64,000 bases of DNA from IMG/VR virus record IMGVR_UViG_3300025467_000013, positions 11,638 through 75,637 of that record; one strand, given 5' to 3'. Each line of letters begins with the position of its first letter. Positions within the stretch are counted from its first letter, which is position 1. The notes below the pieces were generated by a model. The model worked only from the letters and a program-made list of their open reading frames with translations, was not told the DNA's origin and searched no databases. A program made the translations under genes and the position numbers. This document shows, in pieces, positions 10,479 through 21,105 of this stretch. This DNA comes from a virus.

Positions 10479-12626
10479 TTAACTAAAAAGATTTTTAACG
10501 TTAAACATTACATCTGGTCCACCTTTATTTGGATTTTCTTGTTGGGGTCTTCTCATACCATGTAACTCTTGAGTGAATTTACCATCTTTGAGACGACTCA
10601 CTACTTTTGTAACTTTATAGATCCCACTAAAATGAATTACAGGAGCAACTTTGCTATTGCCTCCGAAATCATATAAACCAGTTGCTTGATTTAAATCTAA
10701 AGGTGAACGAAAATTAACTTCAATATCAACTTCACTGCTTTGATAATTCACAGACATATCAGAATTTAAATCTTTATATTGTGTCGGTGTAGATGTATAA
10801 TTTCCCATTCCGCTGTGAGGTATCCAATACGGATCTCCTAAAATTTTCATATCTAAATTTACCATTTCCATTGGGTTTGTAAGAGCGTCTAAAAAGGTTC
10901 GACCTGCTCTGTTTCCTTGATTTTCTTGACCACCACCACCTTGATGATCAGTAGTAGTTGTAGTATTGGTGTATCTAACTTGAGATGGTAGGACTCCTGG
11001 TTCAGATGACGGTGCTAATCCAGAAAATAACGGCTTAACGAACGAAAATAGAGAACTTAACCAATCAATTGCTTCCATAACCCCGGCTCCAAACTCTGCG
11101 GCAGTTAATACATCCTGCGATCTTGCTAAATTATCTGCGGGCATTAATCGAGCAAATGAGTTACTAAAGTCAATGTTAAATTCCAATACTTCGGTGTTAT
11201 TTCCAGTATAGATATAATCGTATCTTTTAATAATCTCTGATTGAATTTTATCGTATCCCGGTGGACGTACATTCGGCGCAGATAATACGCCGCCGTGTGC
11301 TTTATACGGCATTATTCTATAAACAATCACTTTTGGTGTTGTACCTGTTTTTGCTAAGTTAGCATCGTCTTTAATAAAATATGTTTGTGTATCTAAAACC
11401 CACCATTGACGCATACCTTTTTCGTCTATCGCATCCATGCCGAGTGCAGTTTTAGGATATTCACTTTGCAATATTACATTATTAATAATCTGCTCGATGT
11501 ACTGAGTTGATGCATATGTGTGAGTACTATCAGCTGGATCAAATTGAACATTACCATTATTCCAAATTTTAGCAGTTTCGTCATATACTTTATTTTCATC
11601 ATTAACTGACGCAGATGCTTTTCTATCCGACGAAACCATTTTTGCTTGACCAATAGCATTAGTAGTCACATTTGATCCTGTTGACGAAGTTGCACCCATT
11701 CCTAATACCGAACTTAAATCTCCGCCATTGATTACAGCAGATGGTGATACTGTAGAAGTTAGTGCTGAAGTTATGCTAGAGTTTTGCGACGATGTCTGTG
11801 GCTTATCAGGAAACATAATAACGTATTTCGTTGGCGTAGATTCTATACCGTCGTCGACTAACTGTTTAGCTCTTGCATTTAACACCGCTTGCAAACTTTT
11901 TTCCCCAGTTTGCAATATTTCTTGAACTGTTTTTCCTTTAATTGTTGTATCGCTTTTTGTTTTTGCATGTTCGGTAGAATGTGCCTTGCCGTTAGTAACC
12001 AATGCTTCACAATTATATGTTGTTCCTTTCTCACTTGCTTTAATTCCAAAATGTTTAAAATGTATCGGAATATATCGGGTGGTACTAGGAATATTTACAG
12101 GTGCACCGTTTTGTTGCCATCCTCTAAACTCAATCGTTATTAGATAAGGAGCTTCCATCCAATTTTTCCACCCTGCATCATTTGCTGCTTTTTGAACTGC
12201 TAATACAAACATTCCCATACTGTAAGGTTCGTAAATATCAAAAGTTGCATTTGATGTGTAACTATTGTGATGTTGAAAACCAATAATGCTATCTAATGTT
12301 AAATTATCGATAAAGAAATCAAACTGACCATATTGAGTTTGCACTCTATTTGCAGGATCAGCACTAGCCGATTTACATATTAACTCAATACGCTGTCCTA
12401 TCATGTACGTACTGTCTGGGTTATTAAATTGATCGTGTGTTAAAACACCTAATCCTAAAATATAATCGTGAGTTGCATAATTTGATAATTCATTAGGAAG
12501 TGGTAAATTAAGATTTCCTATAGTATTAATAATGCCGTTAGAAAAAGACGAAACTGCATTAGAAACACTCGAAGTTAGTGAAGAAATATCTGTTATTACT
12601 GCCGATGTTGAATCGAAAATACTCAT
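10479..12626 (-). CDS. Baseplate hub/tail protein (gp27/late control D-like position)
   Basis: C-terminal ILGDPYWI and FSGIYKVTKVVSRLKDGKFTQEL motifs typical of hub proteins; lies between gp53 and gp5. Confidence 0.6.
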   Translation of the reverse strand: MSIFDSTSAVITDISSLTSSVSNAVSSFSNGIINTIGNLNLPLPNELSNYATHDYILGLGVLTHDQFNNPDSTYMIGQRIELICKSASADPANRVQTQYGQFDFFIDNLTLDSIIGFQHHNSYTSNATFDIYEPYSMGMFVLAVQKAANDAGWKNWMEAPYLITIEFRGWQQNGAPVNIPSTTRYIPIHFKHFGIKASEKGTTYNCEALVTNGKAHSTEHAKTKSDTTIKGKTVQEILQTGEKSLQAVLNARAKQLVDDGIESTPTKYVIMFPDKPQTSSQNSSITSALTSTVSPSAVINGGDLSSVLGMGATSSTGSNVTTNAIGQAKMVSSDRKASASVNDENKVYDETAKIWNNGNVQFDPADSTHTYASTQYIEQIINNVILQSEYPKTALGMDAIDEKGMRQWWVLDTQTYFIKDDANLAKTGTTPKVIVYRIMPYKAHGGVLSAPNVRPPGYDKIQSEIIKRYDYIYTGNNTEVLEFNIDFSNSFARLMPADNLARSQDVLTAAEFGAGVMEAIDWLSSLFSFVKPLFSGLAPSSEPGVLPSQVRYTNTTTTTDHQGGGGQENQGNRAGRTFLDALTNPMEMVNLDMKILGDPYWIPHSGMGNYTSTPTQYKDLNSDMSVNYQSSEVDIEVNFRSPLDLNQATGLYDFGGNSKVAPVIHFSGIYKVTKVVSRLKDGKFTQELHGMRRPQQENPNKGGPDVMFNVKNLFS

Positions 12627-14019: not shown

Positions 14020-14847
14020 ATGTTACAAAAAGTAAATTATCTCAATAACAAGGATATGTTATTAGAGATACATAGATCAAAGACATCATATTGTAGTTTT
14101 ATAAAACCAGAATATCACCAATACGATATTATCTTACCTAGTTTAGATAAGATTAATATTAGAACTGTTGCTGATGCAAAACGAAATCAAGCAAAAAGGC
14201 TCGGTGAAGCAGAGTATATTCGTCGCAAAACAGCCGGCGAAAAAGTCAAACAAGCAGAGTGCGAAGTAGATTATAAAAAAATCGCAAAAACTGACTTGAT
14301 CTTTAGAATAATGTCGTTTGACCATATTCCTACCAATTCTATCCGCAAGAAAAATCCAAAAAGTGTTGCAGACAGACACGAAAAAGTTAATTTTCCCCCG
14401 TTTCAACATTGGCGATTTAATGATAACGATGAATTAGAATGTGTAGGCAAGAGTCATTGGCGCGGTGATTTGTTGACTGGCGAATTTGACAAAAATAGAG
14501 GAAAAATCACGGACAATTTAGCTCGCATGATGATTAAATTATGTGAACGATACGCTACTAGAGGCAATGTTCGCGGGTATACTTACAACGACGAAATGCG
14601 CGGGCAAGCAATCTTACAATTAACACAAATCGGTTTACAATTTGATGAAAGTAAATCCGATAATCCATTTGCTTACTTCACAGCAGCCGTTACTAATAGT
14701 TTTGTTCGTGTTATTAATATCGAAAAGCGTAATCAAAATATTCGAGACGATATTTTAGAAATGAACGGGATGAATCCAAGTTATACTCGTACAGGAGATG
14801 CAGAATATGAATATGCACTTAAAAGATACAACGAGGACCAAGAATGA
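14020..14847 (+). CDS. gp55: Late-transcription sigma factor (T4 gp55-like)
   Basis: N-terminal NYLNNKD; RGYTYNDEM...FDESKSDNPFAYFT...F...INIEKR motif; upstream of gp47/gp46 as in T4-like phages. Confidence 0.88.
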   Translation: MLQKVNYLNNKDMLLEIHRSKTSYCSFIKPEYHQYDIILPSLDKINIRTVADAKRNQAKRLGEAEYIRRKTAGEKVKQAECEVDYKKIAKTDLIFRIMSFDHIPTNSIRKKNPKSVADRHEKVNFPPFQHWRFNDNDELECVGKSHWRGDLLTGEFDKNRGKITDNLARMMIKLCERYATRGNVRGYTYNDEMRGQAILQLTQIGLQFDESKSDNPFAYFTAAVTNSFVRVINIEKRNQNIRDDILEMNGMNPSYTRTGDAEYEYALKRYNEDQE

Positions 14848-15071: not shown

Positions 15072-15307
15072 AATTTAAAATCGACGAATTAGAAGAATTA
15101 TATAACAAATACTTATTTGCAACAGCCGATGTTCCAACTATGAATGCTATTATGATGGAACTTAGACAACTTGAAGAAAAGTATAACTATAGGTTTACTA
15201 TCACTGCGGTTCCTAAAGAACACGACAGCGAACTATCATTTCAACTGTCATTCAAAACACCTGCAGATAGAAATTGGTTTGCATTAAAGTGGGGTGTAAG
15301 TGAGTAA
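15068..15307 (+). CDS. Small hypothetical protein (C-terminal WFALKW motif); true start probably 15068, not 15035
   Basis: ATG at 15068 overlaps the previous TGA (ATGA); MKFKIDELEE...NWFALKWGVSE. Confidence 0.7.
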   Translation: MKFKIDELEELYNKYLFATADVPTMNAIMMELRQLEEKYNYRFTITAVPKEHDSELSFQLSFKTPADRNWFALKWGVSE

Positions 15308-16313
15308 CTTATTCAAAAAAGTAGCCTGTTTTACCGATATTCATTTTGGATTAAAGTCAAACAGCGCGGTACATAATCAAGATTGTGAAGATTTTGTTGA
15401 TTGGTATATTAAAAAAGCAAAAGAGGAAGATTGTGATACAGGAATCTTTCTCGGTGACTGGCATCATAATCGTAATAGTTTGAATATTACAACAATGACT
15501 TCTAGTCTACGTGCTTTAGAAAAGTTAGGTCAAGCATTTGATCAATTTTTCTTTTTTCCAGGTAATCACGATTTATACTATAAGGATAAGAGAGATATCC
15601 ACAGCGTAGAGTTCGGCAAACATGTACCGGGAATTACAATTGTAGATAAACCTACTACCATTGGCGATGTAACCCTTTGTCCGTGGTTAGTAGGTGACGA
15701 ATGGAAATCTATAGGCAAAAAGCCTAGCAAATACTTGTTTGGGCATTTTGAATTACCACACTTCTTTATGAACGCTATGGTACAAATGCCCGATCATGGA
15801 GAAATGCAACCGGATCAGTTAACTAGATATGAAAAAGTTTTTAGCGGCCACTTTCACAAAAGACAAAATAATAATAATATTCACTATATTGGCAATGCTT
15901 TCCCACATAATTATTCAGATACTTGGGATGATGCCCGGGGAATGATGGTAATGGAATGGGGCAGTGAACCAGAATTCTTTACTTGGGATAATCAACCCAC
16001 GTTTAGAACTGTTAAACTAAGCCAACTAATCGACGATGCGGATAATTTACTCAAGGCTAAGCAACATTTAAGAGTCAATCTTGATATCGATATTAGTTTC
16101 GAAGAAGCAAGTTTTATTAAAGAAAATTTTATTACCAATTATAATTTAAGAGAATTAACTTTGATCACAGAACGGCGAGCAGTTGAATTAACTGAAGAAT
16201 TTGATGTACAATCATTCGAATCAGTGGATCAAATTGTTACCAATCAGCTTGTAAGTATTCAATCTGACAAGTATAATACTAACACACTACTAGATATCTA
16301 TAATAATTTATGA
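15300..16313 (+). CDS. gp47: Mre11/SbcD-like recombination nuclease
   Basis: Metallophosphoesterase motifs DIHFG, GDWHH, GNHD, GHF, SGHFH. Confidence 0.93.
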   Translation: MSNLFKKVACFTDIHFGLKSNSAVHNQDCEDFVDWYIKKAKEEDCDTGIFLGDWHHNRNSLNITTMTSSLRALEKLGQAFDQFFFFPGNHDLYYKDKRDIHSVEFGKHVPGITIVDKPTTIGDVTLCPWLVGDEWKSIGKKPSKYLFGHFELPHFFMNAMVQMPDHGEMQPDQLTRYEKVFSGHFHKRQNNNNIHYIGNAFPHNYSDTWDDARGMMVMEWGSEPEFFTWDNQPTFRTVKLSQLIDDADNLLKAKQHLRVNLDIDISFEEASFIKENFITNYNLRELTLITERRAVELTEEFDVQSFESVDQIVTNQLVSIQSDKYNTNTLLDIYNNL

Positions 16314-18088
16314 CTCTCCTTAAGACATTAACTGTTAAAAACTTTATGAGCGTGGGTAATCAAACCCAAGCAGTACGACTTGACTCTGAACATCTTACAC
16401 TTGTATTAGGTGAAAACTTAGATATGGGTGGCGATGATTCGGGGTCTCGTAACGGTACAGGTAAAACTACAATTCTTAACGCTTTGAGTTACGCATTATA
16501 CGGTACTGCTCTAACAAACATTAAAAAAGATAACTTGATTAACAAAATTAACAATAAAAATATGTTAGTTACGTTAACTTTTGAAAAAGATGGTAACAAA
16601 TATCGAATCGAACGCGGCAGAAAACCCAATATTCTTAAGTTCTATGTCAATGATGAAGAACAATCTAGTAACGACAATGACGAAGCACAAGGCGATAGCA
16701 GGGAAACACAAAAAGATTTTCATATCTTATTCGGTATGAAGCATCTAATGTTTAAGCATATCGTAGGGCTTAACACATACACCGAACCGTTCTTATCGAT
16801 GCGGGCAAACGATCAAAGAGAAATTATTGAAGAACTGCTCGGGATCACATTGCTTTCTGAAAAGGCTGAAGCACTTAAACTTCTAACCAAAGAAGTTAAA
16901 GACGAGATCATGCGAGAAACTGCTAACATTGAAGCAATTAAAAAGGCAAATGAAAAGATCGACCTTAGTATTAGTAGTTTGAAAACTAAACAGTCTGCAT
17001 GGAATAATCAAAACCAAGATGCAATTAATAAGATCGCACTCGCTATTGCCGACCTACAAGATGTAGATATCGAAAAAGAACTTGAATTACATGCAAAACA
17101 ATCAACATATGACGATGTAAAAAAGCAAATTACCAGTCTTAATAAAGAAAAAGCCACCCTTGAATCGGCATTAGTACAAGCACAACGTAGTGTTGATCGT
17201 TATACAAAGGAATTAGAAACACTTAGTAATCACAAATGCCACGCATGTGAACAAGACTTGCAAGATCATAAGCAAGTTGAATTATTTTCTATTGCAAATA
17301 AGAATTTACTTGAATCATTTAATTATCTTGACGAAGTAAGCGCACAATATGCAACTATTAAGACAGAACTTGATAAAATTGGCGAGATTGGCATGCGACC
17401 CGAGACATATTACGATACTTTAGAGCAAGCTATGTCGCATCAAAATAATTTATCGGTATTAGAGAACCAATTAGAAACAAAACTTAACGAAACTGATCCG
17501 TATCAAGAACAAATTGATGAGTTAACTAATACTGCATTGCAAGATGTTTCGTGGACCGAGGTTAATACCTTAACGGAAATGAAAGATCACCAAGAATTTT
17601 TGTTAAAGCTATTAACTAACAAAGATTCGTTTATCCGTAAGAAGATTATTGATCAAAATCTTGCGTATTTGAATAATCGATTAAGTTATTATCTAGATAG
17701 AATGGGATTACCACACCTTGTTGTATTTCAAAACGACTTAACTGTCGAAATTACCCAGTTAGGACAAGATTTAGACTTTGATAACTTGTCTAGAGGAGAA
17801 AGAAATCGACTTATCCTTGGATTATCATGGGCGTTTCGCGATGTATGGGAAAGTTTGTACCAAGGTATTAATTTAATGTTCGTAGACGAGCTTATTGACA
17901 ATGGATTAGATGCAATTGGCGTTGAAAATGCGTTATCTGTACTCAAGCAAATGGGCAGAGAACGTAACAAGAACATATTTTTGATTAGTCATAAGGATGA
18001 ACTAGTCGGAAGAGTTAATAACGTATTAAAGGTTATTAAAGAAAATGGGTTTACTTCGTACAGTAACGATATTGATGTAATAGAATGA
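16310..18088 (+). CDS. gp46: Rad50/SbcC-like recombination ATPase
   Basis: Walker A NGTGKT, coiled coil with CHAC zinc hook, signature LSRGE, Walker B MFVDE, ISH. Confidence 0.94.
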   Translation: MTLLKTLTVKNFMSVGNQTQAVRLDSEHLTLVLGENLDMGGDDSGSRNGTGKTTILNALSYALYGTALTNIKKDNLINKINNKNMLVTLTFEKDGNKYRIERGRKPNILKFYVNDEEQSSNDNDEAQGDSRETQKDFHILFGMKHLMFKHIVGLNTYTEPFLSMRANDQREIIEELLGITLLSEKAEALKLLTKEVKDEIMRETANIEAIKKANEKIDLSISSLKTKQSAWNNQNQDAINKIALAIADLQDVDIEKELELHAKQSTYDDVKKQITSLNKEKATLESALVQAQRSVDRYTKELETLSNHKCHACEQDLQDHKQVELFSIANKNLLESFNYLDEVSAQYATIKTELDKIGEIGMRPETYYDTLEQAMSHQNNLSVLENQLETKLNETDPYQEQIDELTNTALQDVSWTEVNTLTEMKDHQEFLLKLLTNKDSFIRKKIIDQNLAYLNNRLSYYLDRMGLPHLVVFQNDLTVEITQLGQDLDFDNLSRGERNRLILGLSWAFRDVWESLYQGINLMFVDELIDNGLDAIGVENALSVLKQMGRERNKNIFLISHKDELVGRVNNVLKVIKENGFTSYSNDIDVIE

Positions 18089-18339
18089 AATTAAGCGACG
18101 ACGATGTTCATGATGAGCTAATGGATGCTATTAGAGCTTACTATAAAGCGCATCATGAGTGGGTTAATAAAGGCACAAGACAGGCAGGAAAGCGAACTAG
18201 ATGGTGGCTTTCCGAAATTAGGCGTATAGCAAAGGCACAACGTAAGGTCATCATGGATTGGCGTTACGATATAGACGAGAAAAAGCGAATTAAAAAGGCT
18301 CAAAAACAACAGGCACAGGGAAAGAACGATGATAATTAG
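18085..18339 (+). CDS. Small basic protein, Hc1 (histone H1-like) resemblance
   Basis: KGTRQAGKRTRWWLSEIRRIAKAQRKVI resembles the KGNKAAGxRARK.L..I....K..RK.I pattern; K/R-rich; ATGA-coupled to gp46. Confidence 0.55.
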   Translation: MKLSDDDVHDELMDAIRAYYKAHHEWVNKGTRQAGKRTRWWLSEIRRIAKAQRKVIMDWRYDIDEKKRIKKAQKQQAQGKNDDN

Positions 18340-18342
18340 TTC

Positions 18343-18768
18343 GTGTCATGGTATTATAAGAAAAAACTTGTCAAAGAACTACCGCAAGATTGCGTAGGCT
18401 TTGTCTATCTCATCACGAATAATATCACTGGTCGGAAGTATATCGGAAAAAAATTAGCGCAATTCTCTAAAACAACTTATAAAACAGTGACACTTAAAAA
18501 CGGCACAAAAAAGAAAAAGAGAATTAAAACTAAGATAGAATCCGACTGGAGAGATTATTACGGTTCAAATGACCAACTAAACAAAGACGTTCAACAGTTA
18601 GGCGCAGACAAATTCACAAGAGAAATACTTTTTTATTGCAAATCTAAGGCAGAATGTAGTTATGTAGAGGCTCGAGAACAATTTAGTAGACGAGTACTGG
18701 AATCAAACGACTATTATAATGGTCATATCCAGGTTCGGGTCCACGGTTCTCATATTTTAAAATCATAA
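18343..18768 (+). CDS. GIY-YIG endonuclease (T4 endonuclease II/DenA-like, stand-alone catalytic domain)
   Basis: GFVYLITN...KYIGKK, YYGS, F.REIL, E...Q, YYN motifs; GTG start. Confidence 0.85.
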   Translation: MSWYYKKKLVKELPQDCVGFVYLITNNITGRKYIGKKLAQFSKTTYKTVTLKNGTKKKKRIKTKIESDWRDYYGSNDQLNKDVQQLGADKFTREILFYCKSKAECSYVEAREQFSRRVLESNDYYNGHIQVRVHGSHILKS

Positions 18769-18779
18769 CAGGCATTAAC

Positions 18780-19285
18780 TCTACCAATTAAGCTCGCACT
18801 GGCGTCAATAAAGTGCCCTTTAAGTTGGACCTCGGGTCTCAATGACGGAATTCCTTGTTTGGTAGCGGGGTTATAAGTCAGTATCCTTAACAGGACCACG
18901 ATCGGATGCGCCTTTAACCGGTTTGACTTATAAGAAAAAGTTTTACACAGGCTAAAAGAGAGGCTAGCAGCCTCACGACTGCACTGATGTTAGTGTATTT
19001 TTGCAGTCCGCCGTCATTATGAAAACAGAATGAGTAGGTACCGGATGACCGCCTACGGAATGTATTATAAAGATGACAAAAATTAAATTTATTGTTATTT
19101 TTATAGTGCATTGTAGTTCTAACACTAAGTGATATTGTTCAACTCGGATAATGTCTTGTAGTTTCGCTCGGCAACGGGCGAAATGTGATTGAACAATCTG
19201 GATAATATCTAAAAGTGCTTCGCACAATCATTATAAAAATAATAGTTCGAGCGATAGCGAAGAACAGATGAACGTAGTTCATCTT
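18780..19285 (+). ncRNA. Putative large, ornate structured non-coding RNA (unassigned family)
   Basis: At least 12 helices found by eye, with strand-specific G-U wobbles, a GNRA loop and 3 candidate pseudoknots, in a ~550-nt gap with no credible ORF (see findings). Confidence 0.75.
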
Positions 19286-19293
19286 AACACTGT

Positions 19294-19301
19294 TATAAAT
19301 A
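19294..19301 (+). promoter_or_regulatory. Late promoter TATAAATA
   Basis: Perfect T4 late consensus 20 nt upstream of the ATG at 19322, followed by an AGGA RBS. Confidence 0.75.
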
Positions 19302-19321
19302 ATTAATGTTAGGAAATACGT

Positions 19322-20050
19322 ATGCATCTTAGAGAAATAACAAACATTAATGCCCCGAATAAAGATCTCGAAGAAGGAATATTCTCGTTATTTGGCTTCA
19401 TGAGAGGAATAATAATGACTCTTGGTGTAGGACAACCATTATACGATGCATATAAAAATATTCAATCTGCAAAACAACAATACCCCGAAGGTAATGAGCA
19501 GAATAGAATAATCGATCATGAACTAACTGCATGTGCTTTAAAGATCGCAGGCATCTTAGCAGCAAGTAAATTGTTTGCGTCGATAGCTGATTTCGTAAAA
19601 ATATCAAAATTATTTCCTAGACGATCGGTTATTGCAGGATTCATTGACTTTGTGTTGTCACTTCCGATCGGCGCAGCACAAACAACTGCATTAGGATTGC
19701 TTTATAGGTTATTAAACACCCAATCAGGACAAACTTTCCTTGGACAATACATTACAGGGTTAGCGTTGAGCAGCCAAATTCCTGAAAATACACCGATGTA
19801 CGAGAAGTTTATCGGTGGATCAATACGACAAGCAGCTGAGTTTATTAATAAATCACTTAAAAACTCCACTGGAGTTGATTTAGGTGCATCATCTGGTATA
19901 AGCAAATCCGAACCTCAAGGAGGACAACCAGCTCCAGAACCCGAAGTTACTCCGAAGCCAAGAGTCGCTAATCCAAATGAACCAGTACCGACTACGACCG
20001 GTAATGTGTTTACACGGGATCCTGCAACTGGTGAATTGATGTTTAAGTAA
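19322..20050 (+). CDS. Late hypothetical protein, possible internal head/ejection protein with hydrophobic helices
   Basis: Own late promoter; N-terminal MHLREI...LEEG resembles prohead-protease (L-x-E) propeptides; hydrophobic segments and a Pro-rich tail. Confidence 0.55.
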   Translation: MHLREITNINAPNKDLEEGIFSLFGFMRGIIMTLGVGQPLYDAYKNIQSAKQQYPEGNEQNRIIDHELTACALKIAGILAASKLFASIADFVKISKLFPRRSVIAGFIDFVLSLPIGAAQTTALGLLYRLLNTQSGQTFLGQYITGLALSSQIPENTPMYEKFIGGSIRQAAEFINKSLKNSTGVDLGASSGISKSEPQGGQPAPEPEVTPKPRVANPNEPVPTTTGNVFTRDPATGELMFK

Positions 20051-20056
20051 TGTTGA

Positions 20057-20290
20057 TTACAGTAATGGTAGTTGACTTTTAACAGTTGTATCAATATTTT
20101 CCTTAACAACTTCGTACATTGCTTCGCGATCATCGGGGCCATATACATGAAGAAGCTCGTAAAAAGTAACACCGCCTCTCATATACCAGCTTAATCTAGC
20201 TAATTCTTCTTTGAATTCTTTTAATTCTGTATCTAACCTAACTAGATAGCCGTTAATTTCCGACGATGCTAATCTAATTAGGTGCGAACG
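20057..20290 (-). CDS. Tail assembly chaperone C-terminal extension (gp51-like), probably reached by -1 frameshift from the upstream gene
   Basis: Open -1 frame RSHLIRLASSEINGYLVRLDTELKEFKEELARLSWYMRGGVTFYELLHVYGPDDREAMYEVVKENIDTTVKSQLPLL*, with no ATG/RBS at its 5' end; T-TTT-TTC slippery heptamer at 20296-20290. Confidence 0.7.
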   Translation of the reverse strand, partial: RSHLIRLASSEINGYLVRLDTELKEFKEELARLSWYMRGGVTFYELLHVYGPDDREAMYEVVKENIDTTVKSQLPLL

Positions 20291-21105
20291 AAAAAATTCG
20301 ATTGGTCCATTTCGATAATAATAGTATTTGTTGATTCACATTCTACGCATACTACGGATTTTTGAGGTGCGCTCCATAAAGATTGATTACTTTGCAAATG
20401 AGTTTTAAGTGTAAGTATTGTTTCGGAGTCGATATTTTCTAACCATTCTTTAATATAAGCCTGTTCTACTACGGTAGTTGTACTAGTCTTAACAGATTCG
20501 ATTGAAAAAGCGTAGATTTCGTTTTGTAAATCTGATAATTCTGAGAAAATTCTAGTTAATTCTTTACCTCTTTCGACTTCGTCGGCGATATCAGGTACTT
20601 GTTTTAACTGTTGTTGTATTTGAAAGTTAGAAACTGAAATATTTGTTGACTGTCTATAGTTTAACGGGCGGGTATTAATAACTAAATCTTTTATAATTAA
20701 TCGATTATTATATGATTTTGCCTTATAATCGTCGATTAATGATGGTAACTCGATGTCATATTCATTTTCTGCTTTGCATGAAGGACATACATGTGATACT
20801 GGGTAAGTAGTACCAAACGATGCAATCTTAATAGCAATTAGTAAAGTATTAAGATCTAACATGTTCACATCCCAAGCATCCTTAATTGTTGGGCAGCAAC
20901 TCTCGATAACTTTCACTACCGACTCGCCTATTAACAATGCATCGGGCGTCTTTAGTAGCATTTCATCCATTCCGGTCATGCTATACACTGGCATATTTTC
21001 GATAGCTCCGTGAATAGTATCTTTATTGTAATAAAGACCATGTGAAGGCAAATCAATAAAAATTTTTGGCTGTCTAAAATACTGTTGTAATGGATTTTGG
21101 CTCAT
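20278..21105 (-). CDS. Baseplate hub/tail assembly chaperone (T4 gp26-like)
   Basis: NPLQQYFRQPKIFIDLPS, MTGMDE, IAIKIASFG, two CxxC motifs (CPSC, CVEC), C-terminal NFF; adjacent to the tape measure gene. Confidence 0.8.
   Translation of the reverse strand: MSQNPLQQYFRQPKIFIDLPSHGLYYNKDTIHGAIENMPVYSMTGMDEMLLKTPDALLIGESVVKVIESCCPTIKDAWDVNMLDLNTLLIAIKIASFGTTYPVSHVCPSCKAENEYDIELPSLIDDYKAKSYNNRLIIKDLVINTRPLNYRQSTNISVSNFQIQQQLKQVPDIADEVERGKELTRIFSELSDLQNEIYAFSIESVKTSTTTVVEQAYIKEWLENIDSETILTLKTHLQSNQSLWSAPQKSVVCVECESTNTIIIEMDQSNFFVRT

Follow-up and report, generated by a model that had tools for sequence, protein, structure and literature searches.

A large structured RNA with two identically varying words downstream of gp47, gp46 and a GIY-YIG nuclease gene in a T4-like freshwater phage

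The stretch of DNA analysed here (64,000 nucleotides, hereafter the window) covers positions 11,638 to 75,637 of IMG/VR virus record IMGVR_UViG_3300025467_000013, a record of 75.6 kb that is about 21% complete and derives from a distant T4-like freshwater phage. The locus of interest comprises, in this order, the recombination genes gp47 and gp46, an open reading frame (ORF) for a small basic protein (orf84), the gene of a stand-alone GIY-YIG nuclease and a 553-nucleotide (nt) gap at 18769-19321. This gap contains a structured non-coding RNA of about 495 nt (18791-19285, + strand), and it is an RNA gene rather than an empty spacer. An initial annotation had grouped the basic protein, the nuclease and the RNA into one module, in which the RNA might be bound by, guide or regulate the nuclease.

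The presence of a large structured RNA behind the nuclease gene, as proposed in that annotation, is confirmed by a family match and by covariation. Using cmscan, the Rfam model RF01718 (Polynucleobacter-1) matches the 5′ part of the RNA over its full length (positions 1-141 of 141; 85.3 bits, gathering score 37; E 5e-18), and a search of the whole record gave the same result; no Rfam match to GOLLD, ROOL, OLE or raiA was obtained at E values up to 1. The Polynucleobacter-1 motif was described by Weinberg et al. (2010, Genome Biol 11:R31, PMC2864571), and an alignment file in the supplement of that study defines a 3′ “tail” subfamily with a pseudoknot (PMC2864571). The window RNA is the full-length form of this motif. 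The RF01718 model with its 141 positions covers under a third of it; the central and 3′ domains, the mapped pseudoknots and the twin boxes described below are uncatalogued. The RNA starts 22-27 nt after the nuclease stop codon, and not about 12 nt after it as had been read initially.

In the relatives the whole gap after the nuclease gene is conserved at the nucleotide level. For an alignment of 42 sequences (A1) RNAalifold predicted 57 pairs, 43 of them with compensatory changes. The structure tested on A1 consists of 15 helices, including two pseudoknots that a covariation scan had revealed. It leaves 93.1% of the cells paired, compared with 76.2% in shuffled alignments and about 39% with slid partners, and 61 of its 77 pairs are compensated, with both partners changed. 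The covariation score of 0.498 stands against 0.186 (shuffled) and 0.065 (slid), and none of 500 shuffles reached the observed value. A larger alignment of 121 sequences, made with MAFFT E-INS-i, was over-gapped and was excluded. Since invariant G-U pairs fix the orientation, the RNA must be read from the + strand.

Support is found in the 5′, central and 3′ parts of the fold. Helices 1-3 of the 5′ domain are 97.6-100% paired, with 13 of 16 pairs compensated. For the central domain the compensated pairs amount to 12/12 in helix 5, 6/6 in helix 6, 3/5 in helix 7 and 4/4 in helices 8-9, and for the 3′ hairpins to 3/4 in helix 12, 4/4 in helices 13-14 and 8/8 in helix 15. Covariation is weak in the hairpin between the twin boxes (80.6% paired, 2 of 9 pairs compensated). 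A symmetric helix ending in two identical 3′ tails was considered and rejected: 19133-19141 can pair with 19189-19197 in the window, and this pairing is missing in several subgroups. The central domain of the window RNA also holds an AT-rich insert of about 55 nt (19060-19115), shared by only two of the 42 aligned relatives (L005 and L013), which looks like a lineage-specific expansion hairpin.

The RNA carries the same 7-nt word twice, GGATAAT in the window, and we refer to the two copies as the twin boxes. Their variable positions change identically and not complementarily (19146/19200: G/G in 19 sequences, A/A in 23; likewise 19147/19201 and 19150/19204). The twins are identical in 211 of 211 non-redundant relatives. 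Even so, the word itself is far from static: a tree of 200 RNAs, inferred after masking of the boxes, requires at least 70 changes of it. The Polynucleobacter and GOS sequences in the 2010 supplement have the same architecture with the word AGCGAAA, and even there the flanks ACUC and AUCU are unchanged. No other column of the RNA covaries with the boxes, and no complementary partner column was found inside the RNA. Because of this identical covariation, the lack of an internal partner and the fixed flanks around a free word, we conclude that the boxes behave as if read by something outside the RNA. A guide-like variable segment between conserved structures, as envisaged in the initial annotation, is found in part: variable words between conserved flanks exist, and they are present twice and only 7 nt long.

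Several further sources or readings of the word were checked. Around 129 RNAs, no third co-varying copy turned up at a recurrent position within 3 kb on either strand, and neither the loci nor the window show enrichment of the word (window: 12 observed, 10.6 expected). A search for short-helix partners of the box flanks was too noisy, owing to the tolerance of G-U pairs. Another pair of GGATAAT words with the same 54-nt spacing lies inside gp47 (15986-15992 and 16040-16046) and is a coincidence; these sites encode WDN and ADN, and in about 80 relatives they are neither preserved nor matched to the word of the respective RNA. A coding reading of the boxes was rejected on their spacing (47-59 nt, no period of three), and a stop-codon reading on the word AGCGAAA, which contains no stop codon. 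CsrA GGA sites, RegB GGAG/GGAU sites, a DnaA box, anticodon-loop mimicry and a -10 element are all broken, as judged by eye, by the variants AGAUAAU, GCAUAAU and AGCGAAA.

Table 1. Features of the locus, in window coordinates.
Feature	Position	Strand	Basis or remark
gp47 (SbcD/Mre11-like)	15300-16313	+	Pfam Metallophos
gp46 (SbcC/Rad50-like)	16310-18088	+	Pfam AAA_23/SMC_N
orf84, 84-residue basic protein	18085-18339	+	25% lysine plus arginine by count of the translation
Stand-alone GIY-YIG nuclease, 141 residues	18343-18768	+	PF19835 SegE_GIY-YIG
RNA 5′ domain	18791-18933	+	RF01718; helices 18796-18800/18812-18816, 18875-18880/18924-18929, ~18900-18904/18919-18923
RNA central domain	18949-19127	+	covariation helix finder and A1; uncatalogued
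Central hairpin	18960-18963/18971-18974	+	covariation
Central 13-base-pair hairpin	18977-18989/18996-19008	+	covariation
Pseudoknot 1	18991-18996/19122-19127	+	covariation; loop of the 13-base-pair hairpin pairs with the second segment
Pseudoknot 2	19013-19017/19045-19049	+	covariation; second segment lies within near-invariant GGTACCGGATGACCGCC
Central closing helix	19028-19031/19116-19119	+	covariation
Twin box 1, GGATAAT	19146-19152	+	preceded by conserved ACTC
Inter-box hairpin, GCAA loop	19162-19183	+	read from sequence
Twin box 2, GGATAAT	19200-19206	+	preceded by conserved ATCT
RNA 3′ hairpins	19215-19285	+	first hairpin 19215-19218/19222-19225
GNRA-capped hairpin with G-A internal loop	~19247-19262	+	covariation
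Terminal 8-base-pair hairpin	19266-19273/19277-19284	+	probable 3′ end of the RNA
T4-type late promoter TATAAATA	19294-19301	+	read from sequence; serves the next gene, 19322-20050
Baseplate hub gene	20278-21105	-	phrog_150, E 3.7e-15; convergent with the RNA

Nuclease and RNA are tightly linked within the clade. When loci were collected by the nuclease, the RNA core followed directly in 70 of 72 evaluable cases; when they were collected by the 3′ core of the RNA, a GIY-YIG gene lay directly upstream in 65 of 80 and behind an intervening ORF in 5 more (about 75 evaluable), and when collected by the 5′ domain, it lay upstream in 90 of 106 (about 100 evaluable), all of these counts being inflated within each clade by gene order shared by descent. 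No more than 1 nt separates the nuclease stop codon from the start of the RNA in 11 of the 42 relatives in A1. Scans for sigma-70 promoters and terminators gave no signal above chance between the genes (hit counts did not exceed those in shuffled sequence), and the sole terminator-like match on the + strand is the first hairpin of the RNA itself. Because of the start 0-1 nt after the stop codon and the lack of such signals, the RNA would first be made on the nuclease mRNA, and co-transcription of the two appears very likely. The single strand and the missing terminator described in the initial annotation thus hold for all three parts, the + strand being confirmed and no convincing terminator being present.

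The nuclease belongs to the GIY-YIG superfamily and consists of the catalytic domain only. Its residues 3-129 match PF19835 over the complete profile (positions 1-123 of 123; E 3.4e-33; 114.9 bits, cut-off 25), and it also matches phrog_447 (E 2.9e-37). The AlphaFold2 model (predicted local distance difference test, pLDDT, 90.5) is a single domain without a second one, and the basic stretch KTVTLKNGTKKKKRIKTK forms a long beta-hairpin in it (residues 40-66). Profile and model agree with the earlier description of a 141-residue GIY-YIG domain with a basic insertion and no separate DNA-binding domain. The best structural match in VIA-align is the catalytic domain of I-TevI (1ln0; Z 8.4, root-mean-square deviation 2.7, 82 aligned residues); weaker matches to other GIY-YIG proteins, namely a 5-hydroxymethylcytosine-specific restriction enzyme (9u75, Z 7.1), UvrC-N (Z 5.7) and T4 EndoII (2wsh, Z 5.3), fall in the range below Z 8, where a common arrangement can suffice. 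Foldseek gave no significant match for the model in the PDB, and no PDB chain was matched at the sequence level. Residues G19-F20-V21-Y22, Y33-I34-G35, R93-E94 and N126 are invariant in 16 relatives and are the same in Melnitz and P-SSM2; they are putative catalytic residues. The RNA-linked enzymes of L122 and L130 have a short form of the basic hairpin, so the longer hairpin is not an adaptation to the RNA, and comparison of the RNA-linked enzymes revealed no RNA-specific feature. Among relatives the nuclease is better conserved (70-82% identity) than gp46 (48-74%).

A homologue of the window nuclease (36% identity) is PSSM2_218 of cyanophage P-SSM2. According to the 2010 supplement, most examples of the motif lie downstream of gene family GOS11034, which is possibly homologous to PSSM2_218 (PMC2864571); given that PSSM2_218 is a homologue of the window nuclease, the adjacency of nuclease and RNA had already been noted there. 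Members of the PF19835/phrog_447 family are widely labelled “NAD synthetase” in cultured-phage records (e.g. PSSM2_218 and phiM7 gp310, our loci L002 and L309). By profile and fold the family is a GIY-YIG nuclease, and the label appears to be a propagated error.

Nuclease and RNA nonetheless prove to be separable, in both directions. GIY-YIG homologues occur in 461 cultured-phage records, in many unrelated contexts; the genes of phiM7 and BUCT608, for instance, have unrelated surroundings and little or no downstream room for such an RNA. Melnitz-3 and P-SSM2, whose complete genomes were searched, are without any RF01718 match, no cultured phage matches the RNA by blastn, and neither Rfam nor nhmmer found the RNA in L060 and L081. 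Conversely, a PD-(D/E)XK protein (PF24608, E 1e-24 to 1e-29), whose fold is unrelated to GIY-YIG, occupies the same slot in L121, L126 and L143, in the order gp46, small ORF, nuclease, RNA. L126 and L132, with no GIY-YIG gene upstream, carry words that are also used by GIY-linked RNAs. ORFs of 228-356 residues without a Pfam match sit exactly between the nuclease stop codon and the RNA in at least 12 loci (cases are L083, L104, L105, L114, L145, L146, L026, L031, L048, L190, L223, L229, L235 and L238), and L100 has the 3′ part of the RNA without a recognisable nuclease upstream.

The PD-(D/E)XK protein itself has homologues in 154 cultured-phage records, many of them labelled Holliday-junction resolvases and some RusA-like. 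Both Pseudomonas phage Ettore and Agrobacterium phage Atu_ph07 encode it within their gp55-gp47-gp46...hub block, and Rfam and nhmmer detected no RNA beside it there. The place of the small nuclease is therefore tied to the recombination genes, and it exists also in phages without the RNA. In Ettore about 1.5 kb between the PD-(D/E)XK gene and the hub gene (L307:2480-3990), the position taken by the RNA in the clade of the window, are annotated only with ORFs of 31-52 residues; Rfam and nhmmer found nothing in this stretch, which is possibly an unrelated non-coding element.

The RNA also occurs in a second setting. RNAs with the word AGCGAAA were found in more than 120 metagenome contigs, and 60 of the 65 loci with an evaluable upstream region have no GIY-YIG, PD-(D/E)XK or gp46 gene there. 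The full RF01718 5′ domain was present in 6 of 6 such loci tested (83-93 bits). Their neighbours are a divergent DUF6641 gene, an AAA ATPase, a 420-residue integrase and a small tyrosine recombinase; upstream, the gene met most often (48 loci) is encoded on the other strand. The small recombinase (190-204 residues) lies downstream and on the strand of the RNA in 33 of 50 evaluable loci, is often separated from the RNA by other ORFs and is absent from the phage loci. Proteins with 84-86% identity to this small integrase are annotated on Polynucleobacter contigs of 1.7-2.0 Mb, among them in P. paneuropaeus and in strain 86C-FISCH. The AGCGAAA loci are therefore probably chromosomal islands of Polynucleobacter, which fits the hit reported in 2010 in Polynucleobacter sp. 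QLW-P1DMWA-1 (PMC2864571). IMG/VR yielded no relative of the island integrase. A pattern scan of genome contigs for the RNA gave three matches, all in unrelated taxa and without the RNA by nhmmer. On two island contigs, SAM-I/IV riboswitches were matched at 60-66 bits within a few kb of the RNA (L325:2468-2565 and L360:3835-3933, both on the - strand), which fits a bacterial rather than a viral origin of these contigs. In the island RNAs (L311-L430) AGCGAAA turns up again at about +95 to +104, at about +160 (two loci) and, in some RNAs, at about -51, all counted from box 1. The conserved G-A/GNRA hairpin and the ACCGCC strand of a pseudoknot lie at these positions.

The initial annotation had itself named an RNA beside unrelated genes and a nuclease widespread without the RNA as two of three observations that would speak against a nuclease-RNA particle. 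The first was made in the PD-(D/E)XK swaps, the wedged ORFs, L100 and the island loci, and the second in the 461 records and in Melnitz-3 and P-SSM2. A private particle is for this reason not accepted, while the anatomy of the module and the linkage of its parts stand. Co-occurrence and synteny are tight within the clade, with the exceptions given above.

As to the genomic setting, gp47 and gp46 are recombination nuclease genes heading the operon, and blastn matches of this region are SbcC-like genes of cultured jumbo phages. Further upstream, the ORF at 14020-14847, without a Pfam match, is one that we take to resemble the T4 late sigma factor gp55. The order gp55-gp47-gp46-small nuclease-baseplate hub recurs in the annotated records of Ettore and Atu_ph07, and the hub gene lies downstream in most untruncated relatives. 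The late promoter behind the RNA, which we label as such from established T4 biology, sets the downstream limit of the early/middle unit to which the RNA belongs; ATAAATA is kept at this position in most rows of A1. The late gene that follows has no Pfam or PHROGs match; it and its equivalents range from 242 to 546 residues, and in A1 the start region just after the promoter is conserved. Among the data sets listed, the stretch is present in freshwater DNA metagenomes only and in no RNA run.

The basic protein orf84 is an optional member of the block: it adjoins the nuclease in 81 of 134 loci, and in 13 of 134 gp46 abuts the nuclease and leaves no room for it. Its match to Pfam Hc1 (PF07432) reaches 17.9 bits, under the gathering cut-off of 23.5, and 5 of 26 family members match Hc1 (best E 5.3e-6). 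A profile search of the PDB with the family gave nothing below E 0.2, and no homologue was found in cultured phages. “Distantly Hc1-like” is a fair, if unproven, description on this basis. Of the Hc1-like component proposed initially, the lysine- and arginine-rich ORF of 84 residues is there, its Hc1 identity is sub-threshold and its fixed membership in a module is not borne out.

Our preferred reading, in which our confidence is slightly better than even, is that of an independent RNA at the 3′ end of a recombination operon, whose twin words are read by an outside partner. The region would be the tail of a T4-type gp55-gp47-gp46 early/middle operon with an optional Hc1-like protein. The GIY-YIG DNA nuclease would occupy the slot beside gp46/47 that other phages fill with a “resolvase-like” PD-(D/E)XK nuclease, and would work on DNA together with the recombination genes, independently of the RNA. 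The RNA would first be made as the 3′ end of the nuclease mRNA, ending at the hairpin 19266-19284 before the late promoter, and would then function by itself. Two unpaired GGAUAAU words, behind ACUC and AUCU, would be presented by a rigid, knotted scaffold to the outside partner, most probably a nucleic acid that reads them by base pairing.

Some observations weigh against this reading. Adjacency in the clade is tight (97%) and persists with GIY-YIG proteins as divergent as 36-50% identity, for which a functional cause may stand beside the inheritance of gene order. All three types of enzyme beside the RNA are small DNA enzymes without a separate DNA-binding domain, which the view of independent genes does not explain. 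The ends of the RNA and its independent accumulation are predicted from sequence and unproven, and the partner of the words is putative, none having been found in the searches made.

Of the alternatives, a cis-acting element in the 3′ untranslated region survives best, and we still consider it unlikely. Such an element would stabilise or regulate the gp47-gp46-nuclease transcript or late-gene read-through and have no role in trans, in line with an RNA that abuts the nuclease stop codon, with a conserved terminal hairpin just before the late promoter and with the listing of the motif as possibly cis-regulatory by Weinberg et al. (PMC2864571). However, some 495 nt with two pseudoknots and co-varying twins exceed the needs of a stabiliser, and the upstream gene can be swapped or separated or, in the islands, most commonly lies on the opposite strand.

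Next in rank, and improbable in our view, is the nuclease-RNA particle, in which the RNA would bind the upstream nuclease and confer DNA specificity or control, with the twin words as two short guides. One-strand adjacency, an enzyme without a DNA-binding domain, a slot into which non-homologous small nucleases swap and words that are as free in sequence between conserved flanks as guides would be speak for such a particle. HEARO, an RNA from the same 2010 survey, was reportedly shown later to be the guide RNA of IscB and would be a precedent. Yet the nuclease family is widespread without the RNA, including the two complete genomes searched, and the RNA exists without such a nuclease in L100 and in the probable Polynucleobacter islands. 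Large ORFs can separate the two, the same words occur with and without an upstream GIY-YIG gene, the linked enzymes show no RNA-specific feature, the PD-(D/E)XK slot exists in phages without detected RNA, and 7 nt are very short for a guide.

More doubtful is a homing hot spot, at which selfish free-standing nucleases would have settled beside a conserved RNA gene and would cut it in phages that lack them. GIY-YIG homologues in many unrelated contexts, PHROGs relatives labelled homing endonucleases, unrelated nucleases and extra ORFs at exactly the nuclease-RNA junction and invariant RNA stretches that would make good targets are all compatible with it. Against it, the nuclease is near-universal in the clade (70/72) and better conserved than gp46, and PD-(D/E)XK proteins lie in the gp46/47 block of phages without detected RNA. 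As a free-standing Seg-type homing endonuclease the enzyme does not qualify either: I-TevI and the Seg proteins have a C-terminal DNA-binding domain and the window nuclease has none, and its presence is not sporadic.

We give still less weight to a portable specificity module, by which the RNA would aim whichever small DNA enzyme lies next to it (GIY-YIG or PD-(D/E)XK in phages, the tyrosine recombinase of about 190 residues in the Polynucleobacter islands). Both words would base-pair with one and the same short target, carried by two DNA molecules or by the two strands of a dyad site. In its favour, the enzymes encoded beside the RNA are consistently small ones that act on DNA and lack a DNA-binding domain, and the words behave as free guides; RNA and enzymes are separable, however, and no target was found. 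If true, this module would explain why any word is allowed as long as both copies are the same, as in the crossover of site-specific recombination. Least credible of all are self-referential words, by which a nascent copy or recombining strand would move from box to box (as in telomerase RNA or rolling-circle reverse transcription) or the words would match a recombinase crossover: this would account for twins that agree through at least 70 switches, each of which an outside sequence-specific partner would have had to track, and for the small tyrosine recombinase downstream in the islands, but the neighbourhood encodes neither a polymerase nor a reverse transcriptase, the phage loci lack the recombinase, other ORFs often stand between it and the RNA, and no att-like third copy was found.

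RNAs of several hundred nt with no known job are rare in phages and bacteria, and those that were solved revealed new biology. The present one is abundant in T4-like phages of freshwater (each search pattern matched more than 120 IMG/VR contigs, among the matches listed) and is shared between these phages and probable islands of Polynucleobacter, of which cultured strains encode the island small integrase. Only its first third is present in databases. The joint switching of the twin words, at least 70 times, offers a sharp experimental handle on an RNA that we read as independent of the nuclease.

Compared with known systems, the nuclease shares fold and motif order with the I-TevI catalytic domain, T4 EndoII/DenA and 9u75, from which it differs by its long basic beta-hairpin insert; EndoII is of similar size (134-residue chain in 2wsh) and also lacks a DNA-binding domain. 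With regard to the RNA, the authors of 2010 reported no example in a sequenced purified phage (PMC2864571), whereas the window RNA sits in IMG/VR contigs carrying T4-type genes. A type III toxin-antitoxin system of the ToxIN type, which has tandem RNA repeats upstream of an endoribonuclease toxin gene, was considered and rejected, as the RNA lies downstream and has a single complex fold, and the enzyme has the fold of a DNA nuclease. The pairs of HEARO/omega RNA with IscB and of reRNA with TnpB resemble the window in that a large structured RNA with a short variable segment lies beside a small nuclease gene on the same strand. IscB and TnpB are RuvC/HNH enzymes that need their RNA, and their guide lies at one end of the RNA, by the transposon end. 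In contrast, the window enzyme is of the GIY-YIG type (PD-(D/E)XK in some relatives) and separable, and the variable word of 7 nt is present twice and internal; with no RuvC/HNH domain and no obligate co-occurrence of nuclease and RNA, the locus falls outside the RNA-guided nucleases of this type. We know of no case among GOLLD, ROOL, OLE and raiA that carries two identically co-varying words. In other respects these four are similar in kind, being like the window RNA several hundred nt long, built of covarying helices and pseudoknots and found in phages or mobile elements, and ROOL and GOLLD reportedly form RNA cages.

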